Assembly: GCA_016839585.1 (NCBI GenBank)
Contig: JAEOTZ010000050.1
Coordinates: 41,900-105,899, forward strand
Direction of reading: 5' to 3'
DNA from: Promethearchaeota archaeon
GTDB taxonomy: Archaea > Asgardarchaeota > Lokiarchaeia > Sigyniarchaeales > SOKP01
Length of the DNA: 64,000 nt
The translations under genes and the position numbers were made by a program. A model generated the notes under the pieces. That model was not told the origin of the DNA and made no database searches. It saw only the letters and a list, made by a program, of their open reading frames with translations. Of the stretch, positions 43,659 through 55,445 are shown in pieces. Each line of letters begins with the position of its first letter. Position 1 is the stretch's first letter.

Positions 43659-43833
43659 TTTCCTATTTTCTTTGCTTTTTATCTTTTTACAAGTAAATAA
43701 AGTATAGAGTATTTAAACTTCCCAGAAGTGCCAAATTATTAATTTTTTTTTCCCTTTTTTTTTAAATAAAGGAAGATCTTTCTAATTAGTACCCCCCATT
43801 AATTTTTAATAAATGATTTTTCAAAGGATAAAA

Positions 43834-45738
43834 ATGGCTGAGAAAGAAAAAGTTCAGGATAAGAAAGAAAAGATAGAATATCTTGTTAAGGAGATTTCTC
43901 GCCATAGGTATCTTTATTATAATGCTCAGCCAGAAATTTCTGATGCAAAGTATGACGCTTTAGAAGATGAGTTACGAGGACTTGATCCAGATAATCCAAT
44001 ATTATTTAAGATTGGTGTGGATTCTTCCGAGCTTTTCACAAAACGTGAGCATATTATACCTATGTCTTCTCAGGATAAGGTTACAAACCCCCCTGAATTT
44101 ACTAAATGGGCAAGAAAATGCAATTATACAACTTTTCTCATCCAATTTAAGTTAGATGGCATAAGTATAGAATTACAGTATGAGAATGGAGTTTTAAAGT
44201 ATGCTATTACTCGTGGTGATGGAAAAATTGGAGATGATGTATCCGCTAATGTAATTAAAATGAAAGGATTTGTTCCTAAGTTGAAGGTTTCTTTTTCTGG
44301 TGCGGTTCGAGCTGAGATCTTAATGTTTCATGATATTTATGAAGAGAAATATAACCAAATGCAAAATTGCAGAAATGCGGCAGGAGGCATAGTACGAAGA
44401 AAAGATGGAGTTGGGAGTGGAGATCTCAATTTAGTCTATTACGATGCAATTGCCTTAGATGATAAGGTTCAATTTGAAAGCGAGATTAAGAAAGTAAAGT
44501 GGTTACAAGAACAGGGATTTCCCACTATTAAGACTAAGATTGTACATTCTGTGAAGGAAGTAATTGATACCCGTGAATATGTGATGGATTCGCTTCGAGA
44601 TACTTTAGAGTATGATATTGATGGGCTTGTTATTAAGGGAAATACTATCGATTTAGAAGATATGAAGAGAGTAAGACCAATGACTCAGATTGCATTTAAA
44701 TTTCAAGCAGAGGAGATTGAGACTGTTTTATTAGATGTAGAATGGAGTTTGAGTGGACATAATTATACTCCTGTTGCGATTGTTGAGACTGTAAAATTAA
44801 TGGGAACGAATGTGAGCAGGGCAAGTTTAGCAAATCCTAATTTAATTGACGAGTTAAAGTTGAAGATTGGCTCAGAAGTAATGATTAGCAAAAGAGGAGA
44901 TATTATTCCAAAAATAGAGCGGGTATTAGGAACACCCTCTGATGCTAAAGATATTGTCGTTCCAGATACCTGTGAGGTATGTAAAACTCAATTAGTTAAT
45001 GAAGGGACTCGATTGTATTGTCCTAATGAATTGTGTCCCAAACGGTTATACCATCGTCTTATAAAATGGATAAGTAAGCTCAATGTGAAGCATTTTAGCG
45101 AAAAGTTAATGCTCTCTAAATTATTTGATACAGGTAAGTTACAAAAAATTGTCGATTTTTATGATTTAAAAGTGTCAGATCTGACTATTTTTGAGGGTGT
45201 GAAGGAAACCTCTGCCAAAAAGGCATTGGATAATTTATTTCGGGTAAAAGAAGTTCTGTTAGCCACCTTTGTTGCTGGATTTGATATTGAAAATATGGGA
45301 GAACAATTAGTACAGAGGGTAGTAGATGCTGGTTTTGATACTTTAGAAGATATTAAAGACGTTTCCGTTTATGAGTTATCAAGGATTGACGGATTTGCTG
45401 AAACTACTGCTCACTATTTAATTAATGGGGTGAACACTCTCTATCAAGATATGTTAGATGTATTAAATACCAATAAAATTAAAATAAAGGGAAAAAAGAT
45501 GGGAGGAAAGTTAGAAAGTTTGAGTTTTTGTTTTACTGGAAAGCTTAATACTATGAATCGAGCAGAGGCAGAACACCTTGTAGCTGAACATGGAGGAATT
45601 GCTAAGAGTGGGGTTGTAAAAGGGCTGTCATACTTAGTGACCAACTCCACAGAGAAGACTGCTAAATATGTAAAGGCTCAAGGACAGGGAACAAAAATAA
45701 TATCAGAGCAAGAATTCCTTGATATGATAAATAAATAA
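43834..45738 (+). CDS. ligA: NAD-dependent DNA ligase
   Basis: YY...PEISDAKYD, KLDG adenylation motif, TRGDG, RNAAGG, DGLVIK, AFKF, C4 zinc finger, HhH, C-terminal BRCT (FCFTGKL). Confidence 0.95.
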   Translation: MAEKEKVQDKKEKIEYLVKEISRHRYLYYNAQPEISDAKYDALEDELRGLDPDNPILFKIGVDSSELFTKREHIIPMSSQDKVTNPPEFTKWARKCNYTTFLIQFKLDGISIELQYENGVLKYAITRGDGKIGDDVSANVIKMKGFVPKLKVSFSGAVRAEILMFHDIYEEKYNQMQNCRNAAGGIVRRKDGVGSGDLNLVYYDAIALDDKVQFESEIKKVKWLQEQGFPTIKTKIVHSVKEVIDTREYVMDSLRDTLEYDIDGLVIKGNTIDLEDMKRVRPMTQIAFKFQAEEIETVLLDVEWSLSGHNYTPVAIVETVKLMGTNVSRASLANPNLIDELKLKIGSEVMISKRGDIIPKIERVLGTPSDAKDIVVPDTCEVCKTQLVNEGTRLYCPNELCPKRLYHRLIKWISKLNVKHFSEKLMLSKLFDTGKLQKIVDFYDLKVSDLTIFEGVKETSAKKALDNLFRVKEVLLATFVAGFDIENMGEQLVQRVVDAGFDTLEDIKDVSVYELSRIDGFAETTAHYLINGVNTLYQDMLDVLNTNKIKIKGKKMGGKLESLSFCFTGKLNTMNRAEAEHLVAEHGGIAKSGVVKGLSYLVTNSTEKTAKYVKAQGQGTKIISEQEFLDMINK

Positions 45739-47163: not shown

Positions 47164-48516
47164 ATGAAGAAATTTAAAATAAATAACTATATTACCCTAA
47201 AATTAGAGGATGGCACTACTAATCTTTATGTAAATGGTGAGCTTTTCCGACAATGTAAATTGCTATTATTAAATATCTCGATTAATGAGGATTTCAGCCA
47301 GGTACAATCTATTGATGAGATAGCAGAAAAAATGGGTTGGACTCCTTTAGGACAGATGTCTCCACATATTAGACTTGAAATCCGAAAGAAAATCTCCCCC
47401 GTGACTGAATTTTGGGCACATTGCTCAAACATACAAGCATGGGTTGAAGATAATTATAATCCTAATATACTTCATCACAGTCTTGCCTTTCCTTTGTTAA
47501 GAAAGTTAGCTGAAACAGGAGATTTGCAAGCTAAAGCTCGATTTAAAGAGGATGTGGCAAAAAGATTAGAAAGTTCAACTCCTCAAGTTATGCTATATCT
47601 AATTCAAGAGAGATATTTAGAAATCTTTACTAAGGAAGAATTAGAATCTTTGATCCTCAATATTGATTTTAATAATCCTTCAGAAGACGAGTATCTCAAG
47701 TATGTTCCAAGTATTTTTACCTATCTTTATGATTATAATTTATCAAATAAAGTTAAAGTGATCTTGTTTGAGCATTTGGCTAAACAATTTTATGGGAACT
47801 TATTTGAAGAATTAAAACAAATTCTATTAAAAAAATACCAAAAGGAGACTCAAATACTATTGGATAAATTATCTCAGGGGATCAAAAACACTAATTTACG
47901 ACGGATTAAGGAATATTTCTATTTTTTTAATATGGAAGAAAAGATCAAATTGTTTCGTGAAGCTTTATCAAGTAAGTTTTTTCATGTCTTATTTGAGTTA
48001 TTAACCGAAAATCCTAGTTTAATAGATCACCTTGAAAAAAAAGACATACCAATTCTCGTAAAAGAAGCATTTATGACAGGAAATCCCTCTGTTATATCAC
48101 TCCTAGAAGATGAAGGACATTTAATTCATCTTAGCCATGAACAAATAGAAGAAATAATGGAGAATATTTCTAGTTTTGGATTGTCAAAAAATATTATAGC
48201 AGAAATAGAAGATTGGTATTCTTGGTTAGAGAAAGGATATGTACGATTTAGGAGTTGTTATATTTATAGATATGACGTACAAATACTTCAAGAAATTGAA
48301 AGAGTTTTAAATATTAAATTAATTTACACTCCACATGATATTGCGCTCTCGAACTATATGTTTGAAATTGATGATGAGGGAAGAGTATCTAAATTATTCA
48401 TAACGGACACCATAAAAAGAAAGCTTGATATTCCAGACTCTCTTGTCGAGAGAATTTATACTCTAGAAAATCTTAAAGAATTACATATGAAACATCAAAC
48501 AATTATGATTAATTAA
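47164..48516 (+). CDS. Lokiarchaeia-type protein with the conserved N-terminal domain typical of their LRR proteins
   Basis: FKINNYITLKLE...YVNGELFRQCK...EFWAHCSNIQAW...LAFPLLRKL; C-terminus ends in one LRR-like unit (LENLKELHM). Confidence 0.6.
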   Translation: MKKFKINNYITLKLEDGTTNLYVNGELFRQCKLLLLNISINEDFSQVQSIDEIAEKMGWTPLGQMSPHIRLEIRKKISPVTEFWAHCSNIQAWVEDNYNPNILHHSLAFPLLRKLAETGDLQAKARFKEDVAKRLESSTPQVMLYLIQERYLEIFTKEELESLILNIDFNNPSEDEYLKYVPSIFTYLYDYNLSNKVKVILFEHLAKQFYGNLFEELKQILLKKYQKETQILLDKLSQGIKNTNLRRIKEYFYFFNMEEKIKLFREALSSKFFHVLFELLTENPSLIDHLEKKDIPILVKEAFMTGNPSVISLLEDEGHLIHLSHEQIEEIMENISSFGLSKNIIAEIEDWYSWLEKGYVRFRSCYIYRYDVQILQEIERVLNIKLIYTPHDIALSNYMFEIDDEGRVSKLFITDTIKRKLDIPDSLVERIYTLENLKELHMKHQTIMIN

Positions 48517-48698: not shown

Positions 48699-49034
48699 TC
48701 ATAAAACGGATGGAGAATAGCGTTTTGCTGCTCTTGTTAACCCAACATAATTATCTGAAATTTTATAGTACATTTTATCATTTATTACTTTTCTCTCTAA
48801 ATAATTATTTTTTATATAGTGGTTTAAAGAATTCACCATAGTACCGAGCACAACTGCTCCCATATAATTTTGTTTCTTCTTAGTAATCCTTATTAAATCA
48901 AGTTCAGAATGCCACTGACCATCAAGTAAAGCCATCAATATTTCATTTTTCACAGGAATCTTTATATCCTTAATTTTATTGAATAAATTTGAATAATTTG
49001 GTTTATAAAACTCATCTTCTTTAAGATCTTCCAT
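48699..49034 (-). CDS. winged-helix-like protein
   Basis: ILMALLDGQWHSELDL...YLERKVINDKMYYKIS. Confidence 0.6.
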   Translation of the reverse strand: MEDLKEDEFYKPNYSNLFNKIKDIKIPVKNEILMALLDGQWHSELDLIRITKKKQNYMGAVVLGTMVNSLNHYIKNNYLERKVINDKMYYKISDNYVGLTRAAKRYSPSVL

Positions 49035-49137
49035 TTTTAGATACCTATAAAACGAGTTGTAATCTTAAGAATGAATAAAATATTCAGTTATTTAACAAAA
49101 TATATTATCACCATAACACATTTAATAGAAAAAGGAC

Positions 49138-50259
49138 CTATAAAAGATTTGGTGGGATCCCCTCATTAAAATATTTAGCACGCGTTATCCAATTTTCTGA
49201 AAATTCAGGGATCATAGCAAGTATTGAACCACCTATCCAAACAGAATAAGTTCTTTCAGTTGGTGCAATAATTCTAATAACTTGATTTTTTTTCTTTCTC
49301 CTCGCCAATTCAAGTTCTAATTCTTGGTAGATACGTGACTTAAGGTTTGGAAACATACTTGAACCCCCCGATAAAAAAATATTATTTAATAGATCAGGGC
49401 GAATATCCAAATCACAGGTTTCTACCACCTCCATGATTGCATGAGGTAATGAATCTTCTTCTAATTCTGAAGATGGATTGAATAAAAGTTCTGGAATCAT
49501 AAATCGTTCCTGATTCAGTGTTATAGTAGAACCATCTGGTAAAGAATAATCTTTTGTATATTGTTCACTCCTATTTAAATCTTCCTTATAGTCTAATGAG
49601 ACAAAACAAGCTTTTTCCTTCAACACTCTGACTAATTCTCTTCTGATAGAAGAATCTACAGACCATCCAATAGATTCTAAAATTGTTTCCATATAACGAG
49701 TTAATACTCTCCCCCCAATATCTAAAATCTTTACGGCATGTTCTATTTTATAACCCTGATAAATGGGTACTATTCTGGTATTGCTATCACCAATTTCAAT
49801 AATTAAACCGGTTTGAAAACCTCCAGAATATAATGTTAGCATAGAATCTAATACTGGATAGAACGCCATACACTGATAACGTTCTAAAAAGAGCTCAAAA
49901 ATTCTTTCTAAATCATTATATGGAAATAATGGATGTATAGCGAATAATACATTAACAAGACTAGGATCTACTCGTAAGTTATAAAAGATATAGTCAATAA
50001 TATTTTCAAAATGTTTCCAATCAACAATTATCCCCTTTTCAATAGGTTGAAATACTTTATATAAGCCAATTGATTGAATCTCATCACCTACATATAATTC
50101 TTTTTCCTCTAAATCCTTCAAACCATATTGAGTATCTAAAGATTGATATTTTGGCGTTCCAACTATAGTCAAAAACACTTGAGATGGTGTATCCTCTCCT
50201 GCAAATCCAATTTTTGAAGAAAATTGACCGATATCTAAAATAACAGTAAAATTTCCCAT
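49138..50259 (-). CDS. actin-family protein (divergent actin-related protein)
   Basis: DIGQFSSKIGFAGE, IGDSNTRIVPIYQGY, KEKACFV, YSLPDG, ERFMIPELLFNPS, LSGGSSMFP, SVWIGGSILA. Confidence 0.95.
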   Translation of the reverse strand: MGNFTVILDIGQFSSKIGFAGEDTPSQVFLTIVGTPKYQSLDTQYGLKDLEEKELYVGDEIQSIGLYKVFQPIEKGIIVDWKHFENIIDYIFYNLRVDPSLVNVLFAIHPLFPYNDLERIFELFLERYQCMAFYPVLDSMLTLYSGGFQTGLIIEIGDSNTRIVPIYQGYKIEHAVKILDIGGRVLTRYMETILESIGWSVDSSIRRELVRVLKEKACFVSLDYKEDLNRSEQYTKDYSLPDGSTITLNQERFMIPELLFNPSSELEEDSLPHAIMEVVETCDLDIRPDLLNNIFLSGGSSMFPNLKSRIYQELELELARRKKKNQVIRIIAPTERTYSVWIGGSILAMIPEFSENWITRAKYFNEGIPPNLL

Positions 50260-50369
50260 ACCTTATTATAGTTTAAATTTATTTTTAAGATAAATACCCT
50301 AAATAACTATATCTAATATAATATTATATTAAGTCTAAGATATTAATTACTTTTACACTAATAAAATTT

Positions 50370-50591
50370 TTAGTGGTGTGTAATTAATTCTTTTTGCTCT
50401 TCTCTTGCATAGCCTCCTAACCCTGTTGTAGCTATAGTAACACTAATATTTGAACCTAAATCATGATATTTGAGAATAGTAACTCCACAAGAAATTAATT
50501 CATCATCTGGATGACCAGCAAAAATAATTATCCTTTTAGGAACAACTATTGGAATTTCATTTTTACTTATCAAAAAAGGTTTATCTGACAT
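50370..50591 (-). pseudogene. truncated PIG-L/LmbE family deacetylase
   Basis: FAGHPDDELISCG...TTG motif, but only about 73 aa; no second half found. Confidence 0.7.
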
Positions 50592-50733
50592 GTAATTTAC
50601 AAGTCTCAATTCTTAATTAAAAATTTTATGACACATGATGAAATAATCTATAAATTTAGAATTGTGTAATAAAATATTAAAAATGAGACAAATATAAATT
50701 GTAGAAAAAGAAATATTAGTTTCTTTGAGTTTC

Positions 50734-51435
50734 TTATTCTCCTCTCATTATCTTTTTTAATCGGTTTAATTCGTCTAACATTTCATCACGGAGAGAACTT
50801 AATCCACCACCAGCTTTAGGAGCCATTGCAGTCATTGCTCCACCAGACGGTGTTGGAGGGCGAGCACCAGTTGGTGCCGCAGGAGGGCTGGGTCTTTTAG
50901 CAAATGAAGGTGGTTTTGCAGGTGGACCACCAGTAGTTGGTGCTTTTGGAGGAGTAGCTCCAGGAGTTGGTGCTGGAGGTAATTTTGGAGCAGGTGGTAA
51001 ATTGCCACGTATAGGAGGACCACCACTAGGCGCTTTAGGAGGAGCCCCAACAGTTGGTACTGATGGAATATCTCTCTTACCTGGACGTTTTGGAGGACTA
51101 CCGGCTATAGGGGGAGCACTAGGAGTCGCTGCTGCTGTTGCAGGTACAGGTGCACCCTCTTGACCACTTCCACTTAATAAACTAAATAATGTACTTGCAG
51201 CTTTCGTTTTTGCAGTAGTACTAGCTGGAGCAAGAACTTTTTTAGAGGAGGTACTCACAGTCGTAACTTCTTCTACAATATAAATCTCCTTTAAATCTTT
51301 TTGAGCTTTTGCTAAAGATTTAATAAAATCATTTATTCCTTTTACAGTTTCTCCTAGATCATCAGCGAGAGATGTTAAGCCTTTTTTCATAAAGTTTATA
51401 ACGCGTTCGATTTTTTTCTGTTCTTTTGAAACCAC
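50734..51435 (-). CDS. coiled-coil + proline-rich protein with C-terminal WH2-like motif
   Basis: Helical N-terminus, about 110-aa Pro/Ala/Gly-rich linker (LPPAP, GGPP), C-terminal GGGLSSLRDEMLDELNRLKKI. Confidence 0.7.
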   Translation of the reverse strand: MVSKEQKKIERVINFMKKGLTSLADDLGETVKGINDFIKSLAKAQKDLKEIYIVEEVTTVSTSSKKVLAPASTTAKTKAASTLFSLLSGSGQEGAPVPATAAATPSAPPIAGSPPKRPGKRDIPSVPTVGAPPKAPSGGPPIRGNLPPAPKLPPAPTPGATPPKAPTTGGPPAKPPSFAKRPSPPAAPTGARPPTPSGGAMTAMAPKAGGGLSSLRDEMLDELNRLKKIMRGE

Positions 51436-51726: not shown

Positions 51727-51993
51727 TTGCCAAAAAAGGAACTTTTCATTAAAAGGGTGTATGAGATTGTTAATGAACTAAAAATTCCATTAATTGATGA
51801 GCGTGTATACGACAAAGTGGGTTTTAGTACGTCATCAGCAATCGCAAATGTTATCTTCAGATTTGAAGAAGATGAATCTGTAATCAGAGGGTTTCTGGGA
51901 CTTGCTGAATACTTTCATACTGTTGTGATTAAAAAACGCGATGAATTTTACATCCCACATGCCTCTATCTTGTTCCATTTGATTAGTTCATAA
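51727..51993 (+). CDS. conserved hypothetical protein
   Basis: 88-aa ORF with GGTGG SD-like sequence. Confidence 0.6.
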   Translation: MPKKELFIKRVYEIVNELKIPLIDERVYDKVGFSTSSAIANVIFRFEEDESVIRGFLGLAEYFHTVVIKKRDEFYIPHASILFHLISS

Positions 51994-53018: not shown

Positions 53019-55445
53019 ATGAGAAATTTCAAAAAGAGTAAACTATACGTGTTAATTCTGTTAATTACTATTCCTACACTATTAGCATTAAGCTCACTAA
53101 TGACAAATGTTCAAGGAGGTCCTGACGATATACCTGTCGCACATCCTAACAATGGATGGCACTGGGATGTTGAAACAGGAGATCGGATCTATTTTGAAGG
53201 AGAATTCATCTTAACAAATGCTAGTACAGATGAAATCTATATGATGTTTAAGGATATCTGGATTTATAACATAACTTCTATTAAAAATGTAACAATTGAT
53301 GCTGGTTTTGGAGTAAGGGATTACTCTCAAGTGAACGCCACAAGTTGTTATTATGATCTTTCTGAGATAGAAGCATATGATGATCCCCAAGAACTTGCCC
53401 TCTTCGGATATAATGCTTCTGATCCAATTAAGCATAAATATATGGCAGGTCACAATGGAATGCCTTTTTTACTTCCTTTGAACGACTCAGTTATAGAAGT
53501 AGATATTTTAGCAGATATATTAAATGAATCATTTTATGGTTCCCCAATGTATCAAATGGCATTCAATCGTTTTGATTATTATGAATCAGGATCAAATAGG
53601 ATATACTTTTATAATACATCTGAATTTTATTTCACTGAGGGGTATTATTTTGATAATGGAACAATGGAAAAAGGGTCAGCATTCTTAACTGCTAACATGG
53701 GTGCAGGTCCGATATACATAAATGCTACAATGAAACAGGTCTTCGATTATAATGTCACGGATGAGGTTGAGTGGGGTGTAAATGTTGGAGATACCTTTTA
53801 CTATGATGCAATTGAAAATGAAGATACAGTTAATGACGCTATGGATTGGAAACTAAATATTTCAGGCTTTTCTGATATTTTATTAAATAAAACTAAAAAT
53901 GGATTCTCAGAGGAAGAACCAGTTTACATGGTATATCAAGCTGTTTATGCTGAAAGGTCCATGTGGAATGGAACTGATTATGAATATTTCGACAATGTAA
54001 TGGTAGGTACAGCTAATAATTTTTATCCTCAATACTATGATGATGCAGCAGAGGATGGAGTAATGCCTTTCATCTGGCCCATTAATGTTCCAAAGGAACA
54101 CATTGAATTTATGTGGAATAATGATACAGTTCGCATCTGGGAGAGCCTGCAATTTGATGAGGTATACATTTATGAAAATGGATTTTATGATTTTTATTTA
54201 AGGAATTCCACAGGTATAGATTACGTACGAATTAATGTAAGTAAAACTACGGGTGTTGCACACTATTTTCTAATGTTTAGTAGTGATAATTTTATGTTAT
54301 TTGAATTAAAAACTCAGACTTTAGTCGATTGGTCAGTAAATATCGGCGATATCATTTATTTCAAACAAAATGATGATTATGAGGATGGTTTTACTGATAT
54401 TAGAGTAACAATAACTGAAACACATACATATTTCGTGAATATGACATTTCTAGTAGAATATTATAATTATTATGGAATTCCAATGATCCTACCTTCAGGT
54501 CAACCAGAGTATCAGTTTTTCTCTTATATAGTAGCTTCTTATGAAGAATGGAATCCATCAACACAATCATGGGATTATCATGGTACAAATGACTTAGCTA
54601 TAGCAAACATCTATTGGCCAATATCACCATTAATATTTGTGGATATTAGTGGAGCGCCAATGCTATTGCCTGAAGATACATCTAGTTCTGAACTTACAGG
54701 TATTTTTGATATGTTTAGCCCTATTTATGATGATATAACTTATAGTACTGGATTAGTAATCCTCAGAAATTCGACTTTGGATAGAACATTATATTTCTAT
54801 TTCGATGAGGCTTCAGGTAAAGTGACTATGATGCATGGATGGGGCAATATGCCAATTCCAGGCGCTGAATGGAATTATATGACATATTATCCTAAATTTT
54901 ATAGACAATTATCTAATGGGACTAATTTTTTTACGATGAATAGTGATTTCATAACCGATATGACGCTCACGGTTGAGCTTAATGTTGCAGCTGTAGGAGG
55001 ACCTCTACCAGAATATATCTATAATTTCCTTTCAATGAATCCTGTTAATGTGTCTGTGCCTGAAGGTACCCCATTAGCTTATATTGATCAACTTTTTACT
55101 TATTATCCATTAATTAATGGCAATATAACGATGACAATGACACTTCCATCATCTATAGATCTTAATGACATTGAACTTCGATTTTATGCTTTTAATATGA
55201 GCGGAACATTAGAATGGGACGAAGCGCCTCCTGATTTTTATACTACTATCATTTATGATTACGGTACAAATTCATTTACTATTGAAACTCCCGCTTGGCC
55301 TTGGGGAACGATATCTGCAATATCTTATATCTCAGAGCCGACAGAAGAGCCTATCATCCCAGGATATAACGTATTGATCTTCGTAATAGGTATAATTGTA
55401 ATTTCAGCACTACTAATCAAATGGAAACGTAAGAAAAGTATTTAA
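53019..55445 (+). CDS. secreted surface glycoprotein with three repeats and Loki-CTERM-like anchor
   Basis: Signal peptide; repeats WDVETGDRIYF / WGVNVGDTFYY / WSVNIGDIIYF; many NxS/T sequons; IPGYN + TM + KRKK tail. Confidence 0.8.
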   Translation: MRNFKKSKLYVLILLITIPTLLALSSLMTNVQGGPDDIPVAHPNNGWHWDVETGDRIYFEGEFILTNASTDEIYMMFKDIWIYNITSIKNVTIDAGFGVRDYSQVNATSCYYDLSEIEAYDDPQELALFGYNASDPIKHKYMAGHNGMPFLLPLNDSVIEVDILADILNESFYGSPMYQMAFNRFDYYESGSNRIYFYNTSEFYFTEGYYFDNGTMEKGSAFLTANMGAGPIYINATMKQVFDYNVTDEVEWGVNVGDTFYYDAIENEDTVNDAMDWKLNISGFSDILLNKTKNGFSEEEPVYMVYQAVYAERSMWNGTDYEYFDNVMVGTANNFYPQYYDDAAEDGVMPFIWPINVPKEHIEFMWNNDTVRIWESLQFDEVYIYENGFYDFYLRNSTGIDYVRINVSKTTGVAHYFLMFSSDNFMLFELKTQTLVDWSVNIGDIIYFKQNDDYEDGFTDIRVTITETHTYFVNMTFLVEYYNYYGIPMILPSGQPEYQFFSYIVASYEEWNPSTQSWDYHGTNDLAIANIYWPISPLIFVDISGAPMLLPEDTSSSELTGIFDMFSPIYDDITYSTGLVILRNSTLDRTLYFYFDEASGKVTMMHGWGNMPIPGAEWNYMTYYPKFYRQLSNGTNFFTMNSDFITDMTLTVELNVAAVGGPLPEYIYNFLSMNPVNVSVPEGTPLAYIDQLFTYYPLINGNITMTMTLPSSIDLNDIELRFYAFNMSGTLEWDEAPPDFYTTIIYDYGTNSFTIETPAWPWGTISAISYISEPTEEPIIPGYNVLIFVIGIIVISALLIKWKRKKSI

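Follow-up and report, generated by a model that had tools for sequence, protein, structure and literature searches.

Current accounts of actin regulation in Asgard archaea involve profilins and gelsolins only (PMC13716822), and the function of the Asgard actin-related proteins (ARPs) has been stated to be unknown (PMC7444086). 'Ca. Lokiarchaeum ossiferum' has four actin homologues, three of which are not Lokiactin (PMC9834061), and the proteins listed as co-immunoprecipitating with its Lokiactin are limited to profilin, gelsolins, an ARF GTPase and BAR proteins (PMC13716822). Among described regulators, the class I nucleation-promoting factors (NPFs), which carry a WH2, central and acidic (VCA) region, are defined by their central and acidic regions and by an aromatic residue after WH2 (PMC3298513). 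In the arcadin-2 of Pyrobaculum (PDB 5LY3) a linker that is not conserved and is presumably unstructured joins a core to a small conserved C-terminal helix; the last 17 residues of the protein bind the hydrophobic groove of crenactin and depolymerise the filaments, and ParR occupies the equivalent groove on ParM (PMC5173319). Here we examined a four-gene locus at positions 48699-51435 of a 64,000-nucleotide stretch of DNA (hereafter the window) from a Promethearchaeota archaeon of the class Lokiarchaeia (GenBank assembly GCA_016839585.1, contig JAEOTZ010000050.1, positions 41,900 to 105,899). A sequence-only reading of this locus had proposed a linked pair of an ARP and an NPF, as a possible precursor of Arp2/3-WASP or VASP-type control of actin assembly. 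In the literature we found no paper on an Asgard actin regulator of Pro-rich or WH2-like type, nor on a linked ARP partner.

The locus comprises four open reading frames of 111, 373, 79 and 233 amino acids, all on the minus strand, which lie where they had been described. They encode a small putative winged helix-turn-helix (wHTH) protein (wHTH111, 48699-49034), a divergent actin paralog, or Asgard ARP, with substituted nucleotide-hydrolysis residues (ARP373, 49138-50259), the decayed remnant of a PIG-L/LmbE-type deacetylase (50370-50609, with homology at 50379-50591) and a Pro-rich protein (PRO233, 50734-51435; we refer to its family as PRO). The intergenic gaps measured 103, 110 and 124 bp, in agreement with the earlier remark that they exceed 100 bp; T-runs follow the stop codons of PRO and ARP, and a repeat search of the three intergenic regions returned only AT-rich noise. 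Divergent from PRO, on the plus strand, lies an orphan gene of 88 amino acids (p88, 51727-51993), which is the most deeply conserved neighbour of PRO. The window has a G+C content of ∼29%, and near-identical proteins in public records are labelled Promethearchaeota or Lokiarchaeota. The reading that we favour, and consider probable, is that the locus is an inherited gene order of one Lokiarchaeial family, made up of four separately evolving units, and not a dedicated ARP-NPF module.

Co-orientation of the four genes alone is unremarkable, while the retention of their order in other genomes is beyond chance. The families of the class that we sampled are designated f1 to f7, f1 being the one that keeps the order seen in the window. 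In every f1 locus examined (at least 12 genera) the order was PRT, p88 (divergent), PRO, PIG-L where retained (248 amino acids in its full form), ARP and wHTH, and in genus g1 a tally of coordinates placed PRO and ARP within 5 kb of each other on one contig in 45 of 48 genomes. The reported linkage of PRO, ARP and wHTH thus stood in the genus and in f1, and the co-oriented, adjacent or near-adjacent position of PRO and ARP throughout this family speaks for the proposal that PRO is a WASP- or VASP-like nucleation-promoting or elongation factor acting on or with the ARP. However, the f1 block, of some 12 unrelated housekeeping genes, runs on into MgtE-like, PhoU/TrkA-C, SIS, SET and TIM-barrel genes, and since this block of unrelated genes is also conserved, what is preserved at the depth of f1 is general synteny. 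Two genomes (G129 and G146) carry 4-6 kb inserted between PRO and PIG-L-ARP.

The PIG-L fragment of the window matches only positions 2-45 of the 129 positions of the Pfam profile PF02585. It corresponds to residues 1-71 of the full-length 248-amino acid ortholog (61% identity by TBLASTN), the remainder of which has been deleted, and the 79-amino acid stub therefore holds no complete catalytic domain; full-length orthologs score 5.5e-23 against the same profile. In most f1 genera the full-length gene separates PRO from ARP, lying 49-95 bp from the latter, and in one f2 genome it is found directly upstream of ARP. The ancestral state in f1 was a full PIG-L gene between PRO and ARP; genera g16 and g17 and many species of g1 have lost it by deletion, and in the window the deacetylase gene that once separated the two has decayed.

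In f2, the sister family of f1, PRO and ARP are not linked. Three f2 genomes have both genes on one large contig, at distances of 44, 70 and 100 kb, and in nine further genomes the two orthologs lie on different contigs. Separation of the genes in other genomes had been named beforehand as a sign against a functional pair, and this is what we observed outside f1. Directly upstream of the f2 ARP we found either PIG-L (G030, genus g5) or a Ras-family GTPase (G032 and G038), and in f3 we found p88, PRO and PIG-L together without ARP. The f3 arrangement and the PIG-L-ARP pair of G030 suggest that p88, PRO, PIG-L and ARP once formed a cluster, which was then broken on several occasions. A possible ancestral cluster of this kind is a further point in favour of PRO as a factor acting with the ARP; its repeated breakage argues against strong selection for their linkage.

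The Ras-family small GTPase (PF00071, E values of 2e-44 and 3e-40) directly precedes the ARP ortholog on the same strand in two f2 genera (L073:11280-11864, minus strand; L072:8791-9381, plus strand), and in these genera a zinc-ribbon protein is encoded divergently from the GTPase-ARP pair. This neighbourhood is possibly more telling than that of the window. We also noted that p88, the wHTH domain, ARP and PRO recur near one another in shifting arrangements.

The distributions of PRO and of the ARP clade did not coincide. PRO was identified in 133 of 151 genomes of the class, in all seven families sampled, and, when the same Loki-built profile was used for a phylum-wide search, in 44 of 101 genomes, including eight families outside the class. 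Clear ARP orthologs, defined by E values below 1e-140, were found in f1 and f2 only; the best matches in f3 to f7 were at the Lokiactin level (1e-100 to 1e-105), with the exception of a shortened ARP frame of 186 amino acids and 50% identity in the single f3 genome, on a contig different from that of PRO. Orthologs of ARP373 are 83-87% identical within the genus and 48-56% identical in f2, where PRO orthologs are 42-48% identical. About 15 f1 genomes were without both PRO and ARP, and we discounted this joint absence as an assembly effect because many PRO matches stop at contig edges in repetitive Pro-rich DNA. Since PRO occurs in families in which this ARP clade was not found, its function cannot depend on the ARP, and the co-occurrence expected of the proposed pair did not hold.

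ARP373 is an actin-family protein: its residues 5-367 match positions 6-401 of the 410 positions of PF00022 (E 4.8e-88), it matches PDB actins at E values of ∼1e-85, and it is ∼42% identical to the Lokiactin of the same genome. Its 60 best solved relatives are all actins, not Arp2 or Arp3. The genome, which is 99% complete, contains four actin-fold genes, namely Lokiactin (G000:C10:15991-17073, 443 bits), ARP373 (291 bits), a third paralog of 511 amino acids with zinc ribbons (G000:C60:49613-51145, plus strand; L003) and a fourth in a 405-amino acid form. Three divergent paralogs, ARP373 among them, thus accompany a highly conserved Lokiactin, and the count of four is that of L. ossiferum; ARP373 carries substitutions at the P1 loop and at the equivalents of Q137 and H161, and clear orthologs of it were found in only two families of one order. 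In an alignment with ten Lokiactins the P1 loop of ARP373 reads DIGQF where the Lokiactins have DNGTG, the equivalent of actin Q137 is D (G in f2), that of H161 is an invariant R, and the protein also has a basic insertion of four residues and differs at its C-terminus. In actin numbering, Q137, H161 and a P1 loop of DNGSG are the canonical nucleotide-hydrolysis residues, and ARP373 does not have them. The protein is considered functional because it is intact and well conserved among congeners, and from these substitutions it probably hydrolyses nucleotide slowly or not at all; clear orthologs of this actin paralog were found in f1 and f2 only. In the 511-amino acid paralog a double zinc-ribbon insertion (PF13248, PF12773, DUF7575) follows the actin core, and zinc-ribbon actin forms of 489-566 amino acids are present throughout the order.

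PRO233 is a member of an undescribed, single-copy and widespread Asgard family. Its 211 homologs are all named 'hypothetical protein' and come from Promethearchaeota or Lokiarchaeota. PRO233 has no Pfam or NCBIfam family, PRO fragments searched against Pfam at E values up to 10 gave no match to a domain of any kind, and a search of the ESM Atlas with PRO returned nothing outside the family's own cluster. The gene starts with GTG preceded by a GAGG Shine-Dalgarno sequence, both of which are conserved. In alignments the orthologs share a conserved N-terminal stretch of 55-60 residues, a short (A/R)xxL(F/I)xLL(S/T)G motif, a Pro-rich arm with GPPKAP-type repeats and conserved LPPAPKLPP and FAKRP motifs, and a helix at the extreme C-terminus; the arm differs between species in length and in the number of its repeats.

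The AlphaFold2 (AF2) model of PRO233 follows the same plan. Residues 4-61 (51253-51426) form a long amphipathic helix with a predicted local distance difference test (pLDDT) score of ∼80-90, conserved across families, which is probably an oligomerising coiled coil. Residues ∼100-205 (50821-51138) correspond to the Pro-rich arm, which is disordered in the model (pLDDT ∼46-64, no secondary structure), and residues 212-230 (50746-50802) form a continuous amphipathic helix (pLDDT 81-92). The core of this end helix, LRDEML.EL.RLK.IM.G, is invariant in all seven families of the class, whereas the remainder of PRO is ∼33% identical; no second copy of the helix was found in this genome. That the Pro-rich protein is conserved and ends in an amphipathic helix was borne out, and what did not survive was the identification of that helix as WH2. 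We consider PRO best read as a coiled coil, a Pro-rich arm and an invariant docking helix, a layout nearest by analogy to that of arcadin-2 or ParR. PRO233 would then act as a tether or adaptor, in which a floppy arm of ∼110 residues links the N-terminal helix to an almost invariant end helix of 19 residues and presents this helix for docking to a very conserved partner.

PRO resembles WH2 proteins and the WASP VCA region in having an amphipathic helix behind a Pro-rich region, and its MLDEL and LKKI elements recall two WH2 signatures. That it combines a putative oligomerising helix and a Pro-rich tract with an LKKI-bearing amphipathic helix at its end also speaks for an NPF. However, no match to the WH2 profile (PF02205) was obtained with the whole of PRO at E values up to 0.1, with residues 200-233 at E values up to 10, or anywhere in the six-frame translated genome at E values up to 1, although with a profile of only 28 positions such a miss is weak evidence. 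Neither possible register of the helix has the spacing of the WH2 pattern. In the register M219-L-D-E-L-N a single residue precedes L226-K-K-I, against a linker of 4-10 residues in the pattern, and in the register (G211)-L-S-S-L-R the linker is nine residues long but the first hydrophobic residue is lacking, and f2 has GLGGLR at this place. LKK is the most conserved element of WH2; in PRO it is replaced by LKS or LKT in f3, f5, f6 and f7, and the last residue of the LKKI motif is I. Nor did we see the short helix followed by an extended linker and an LKKV segment, since in the AF2 model, a prediction for the free protein, the helix runs on through LKKIM. The WH2 likeness of the PRO tail thus appears partial and lineage-specific.

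The further marks of an NPF were also missing. PRO233 ends in MRGE, four residues after LKKI, and for this reason both the central and the acidic region are lacking; Trp does not occur in the protein. In the 99% complete genome the Arp2/3 subunit profile ARPC4 (PF05856) had no match and ARPC2 (PF04045) had only a 14-bit match interrupted by stops, so that neither subunit was found. Membership of PRO in the WH2 and VCA groups, and of the locus in an Arp2/3 system, therefore fails in all three cases.

We also compared PRO with Ena/VASP. The two are alike in having an oligomerisation helix (in PRO a predicted one), a Pro-rich tract and short helical motifs. They differ in that an Ena/VASP protein has an N-terminal EVH1 domain and a C-terminal tetramerisation coiled coil, and PRO233 has no EVH1/WH1 domain and its putative coiled coil is N-terminal. 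The PRO tail may also resemble the F-actin-binding motif of VASP. Loki profilins are reported not to bind VASP polyproline (PMC8410842). Considering these results together with the separation of PRO and ARP in f2, the occurrence of PRO in lineages where the ARP clade was not found, the wider conserved block and an ARP whose closest solved relatives are actins, we regard it as very improbable that PRO is an NPF acting with the ARP, and most of the earlier proposal of a linked ARP-NPF pair is left unsupported.

Two other assignments for the PRO tail were considered and set aside. As an ESCRT-III-like MIT-interacting motif (MIM), it misses the spacing of the MIM1 consensus by one, and the N-terminal portion of PRO does not come near the length of an ESCRT-III core. 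A role as C-terminal membrane-targeting helix is unlikely, the helix being rich in D and E.

The described protein to which PRO233 comes closest is arcadin-2, which likewise has a core, an unstructured linker and a conserved C-terminal helix and is encoded near an actin-family gene, as PRO is in f1. This agreement is one of architecture only and not of homology: there is no detectable sequence similarity between the two, the arcadin-2 helix relies on a tryptophan that PRO does not have, and PRO adjoins an actin paralog in one family only, a paralog that is not the main filament-forming Lokiactin. By this analogy it is plausible that the hydrophobic groove of Lokiactin receives the end helix of PRO, just as that of crenactin receives arcadin-2 and that of ParM receives ParR, and binding of PRO to actin is in this sense possible. 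PRO could then be an actin regulator independent of the ARP, its end helix lying in the hydrophobic (barbed-end) groove of Lokiactin, where WH2 also docks on actin, and its oligomeric head and Pro-rich arm forming a multivalent tether that delivers or sequesters monomers.

Several observations suit such a regulator. Its layout matches that described for arcadin-2 (PMC5173319), its helix does not vary within the class, the conservation of Lokiactin is high enough for a partner, MLDEL fits the hydrophobic pattern of the WH2 helix, and in one family PRO lies near an actin paralog. On the other hand, the neighbours of PRO outside f1 are not cytoskeletal; from their N-terminal sequences we take them to be RNA polymerase, L30e, NusA-like or tRNA-endonuclease-like genes. 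The helix has no Trp or other aromatic anchor, unlike that of arcadin-2, and a search of PDB sequences with the PRO tail found no similarity to any solved chain. The list of proteins that co-immunoprecipitate with Lokiactin in L. ossiferum (PMC13716822), whose table carries private GNAMCCOK_ locus tags, also names only the proteins given above. We consider an independent actin regulator of this kind rather unlikely.

If PRO233 is the tether that our favoured reading makes of it, its most likely functional partner is p88, as judged by gene neighbourhood. p88 adjoins PRO in f1, f3, f5, f6 and f7 and lies 3 kb away in one f2 genus, with varying orientation. It was found in 134 of 151 genomes of the class, is 53-63% identical across the class and contains an invariant GFLGLAEY motif. 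Searches of the Atlas, Pfam and NCBIfam and a profile search assigned no known domain to p88, and the profile search recovered only 27 small clusters among 1.84 billion representatives.

The gene downstream of ARP raises the question whether ARP373 and wHTH111 are the true functional pair, with wHTH111 as a local transcription regulator or as a ParR/TubR-like DNA-binding adaptor for ARP filaments. The sequence-only reading had noted a wHTH gene beside the ARP, and its position directly downstream was confirmed; the winged-helix identity itself is weakly indicated by the model. The AF2 topology is three helices, a beta hairpin and a further helix (mean pLDDT 62), no Pfam or NCBIfam family was assigned, and the 50 Foldseek matches listed are all winged-helix proteins or domains, at E values of ∼2e-3 or worse and a template-modelling (TM) score of ∼0.5. 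A stand-alone wHTH gene was found only in f1, where it lies ∼100-250 bp downstream of ARP in 17 of 23 loci examined; in a few genomes the gap is 0.7-5 kb or the two genes are on different contigs. Its most invariant part, the C-terminal SDNYVGLTRAA helix, and the fact that the top structural match is the centromere adaptor TubR also suit a pair with the ARP. However, the TubR match is no better than those to the winged helices of ArsR/SmtB and PadR, which follow it among the best matches (E 2e-3 to 1e-2 and TM ∼0.5, for a model of low pLDDT).

The wider distribution of the domain also bears on this pairing. The ARP orthologs of f2 have no adjacent small wHTH gene. In that family the wHTH111 domain forms the C-terminal end of proteins of 350-840 amino acids that are otherwise without domains, and in G032 and G038 such proteins lie 5-7 kb from ARP (L073:17403-19286, minus strand; L072:2606-4981, plus strand), which lends the pair some support. 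In f4 a form of the domain of 164-168 amino acids adjoins p88 in the absence of this ARP clade (G027:C108:3999-4298; G029:C131:2789-3085), and a small wHTH gene next to any gene is very common. We therefore doubt that ARP373 and wHTH111 form the functional pair. In the reading that we prefer, wHTH111 would be an f1-specific winged-helix protein placed after ARP, with a promoter-like element of its own.

That element lies upstream of the wHTH gene (49087-49117, minus strand) and consists of two rTAWTAY-type repeats ∼11 bp apart followed by TTAAATAA, a TATA-like box. Visual comparison of the aligned upstream regions of 14 f1 genomes, drawn from six genera, revealed it; a repeat finder run on the single window sequence did not return the repeats, and the case comes from conservation across species. 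Its conservation suggests a promoter belonging to wHTH, and the repeats look like an operator overlapping that promoter, which would also agree with wHTH111 acting as a local regulator beside ARP.

Co-transcription of the four genes received no help from RNA data. Metatranscriptome contigs from two sediment runs include short, near-identical pieces (0-8 differences) on wHTH, PRO and p88, and pieces on ARP that are ∼86% identical. No contig from these two libraries of short contigs bridges two genes. These sediment contigs show neither transcription nor co-transcription, as DNA carry-over is possible.

Some further genes of the window were noted around the conserved block. A bacterial-type NAD-dependent DNA ligase, LigA, with adenylation, OB, HhH and BRCT domains, is encoded at 43813-45738 (plus strand); this stretch has the highest G+C content of the window (0.34 against ∼0.29), LigA was not found in 20-kb stretches around the locus from other genomes of the genus, and it may be an acquired gene. 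The block is flanked by two plus-strand genes without a Pfam family. One encodes a protein of 450 amino acids (47164-48516) and marks the end of synteny with congeners, just past the wHTH gene, and the other encodes a protein of 808 amino acids (53019-55445) with ∼40% identical relatives in genus g14.

A number of points weigh against our interpretation of the locus as inherited gene order. The PRO-ARP neighbourhood persists across the whole of f1, even where the intervening PIG-L gene has been lost, and the link may be as old as the ARP clade, so that a functional tie is conceivable. MLDEL agrees with positions one to five of the WH2 helix pattern, and this lineage also has LKKI. A docking helix that does not vary calls for a partner of very high conservation, and Lokiactin, which is 88-98% identical across the order, fits this description, while p88 has no recognisable fold or function and gene order is the sole ground for naming it the partner. 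Finally, the AF2 model of PRO was built from only 11 sequences, with a predicted TM score of 0.21 and no globular fold.

Had the ARP and an NPF formed a linked pair, that pair would have stood as a direct forerunner of Arp2/3-WASP control; the evidence argues against it. What retains value is an undescribed single-copy family with an invariant docking helix, its 88-amino acid companion, and an order-level ARP clade with an apparently degenerate ATPase site. It is a speculative idea, and one that we think improbable at present, that the PRO family with p88 as cofactor is a new class of Asgard actin regulator, an oligomeric tether whose end helix would, by analogy with arcadin-2, lie in the groove of Lokiactin and/or ARP. 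If this were true, PRO would be a third kind of Asgard actin-binding protein besides profilins and gelsolins, parallel to arcadin-2, WH2 and Ena/VASP proteins and of independent origin. The PRO family, p88 and the ARP clade are concrete targets for study in cultured Lokiarchaeia.

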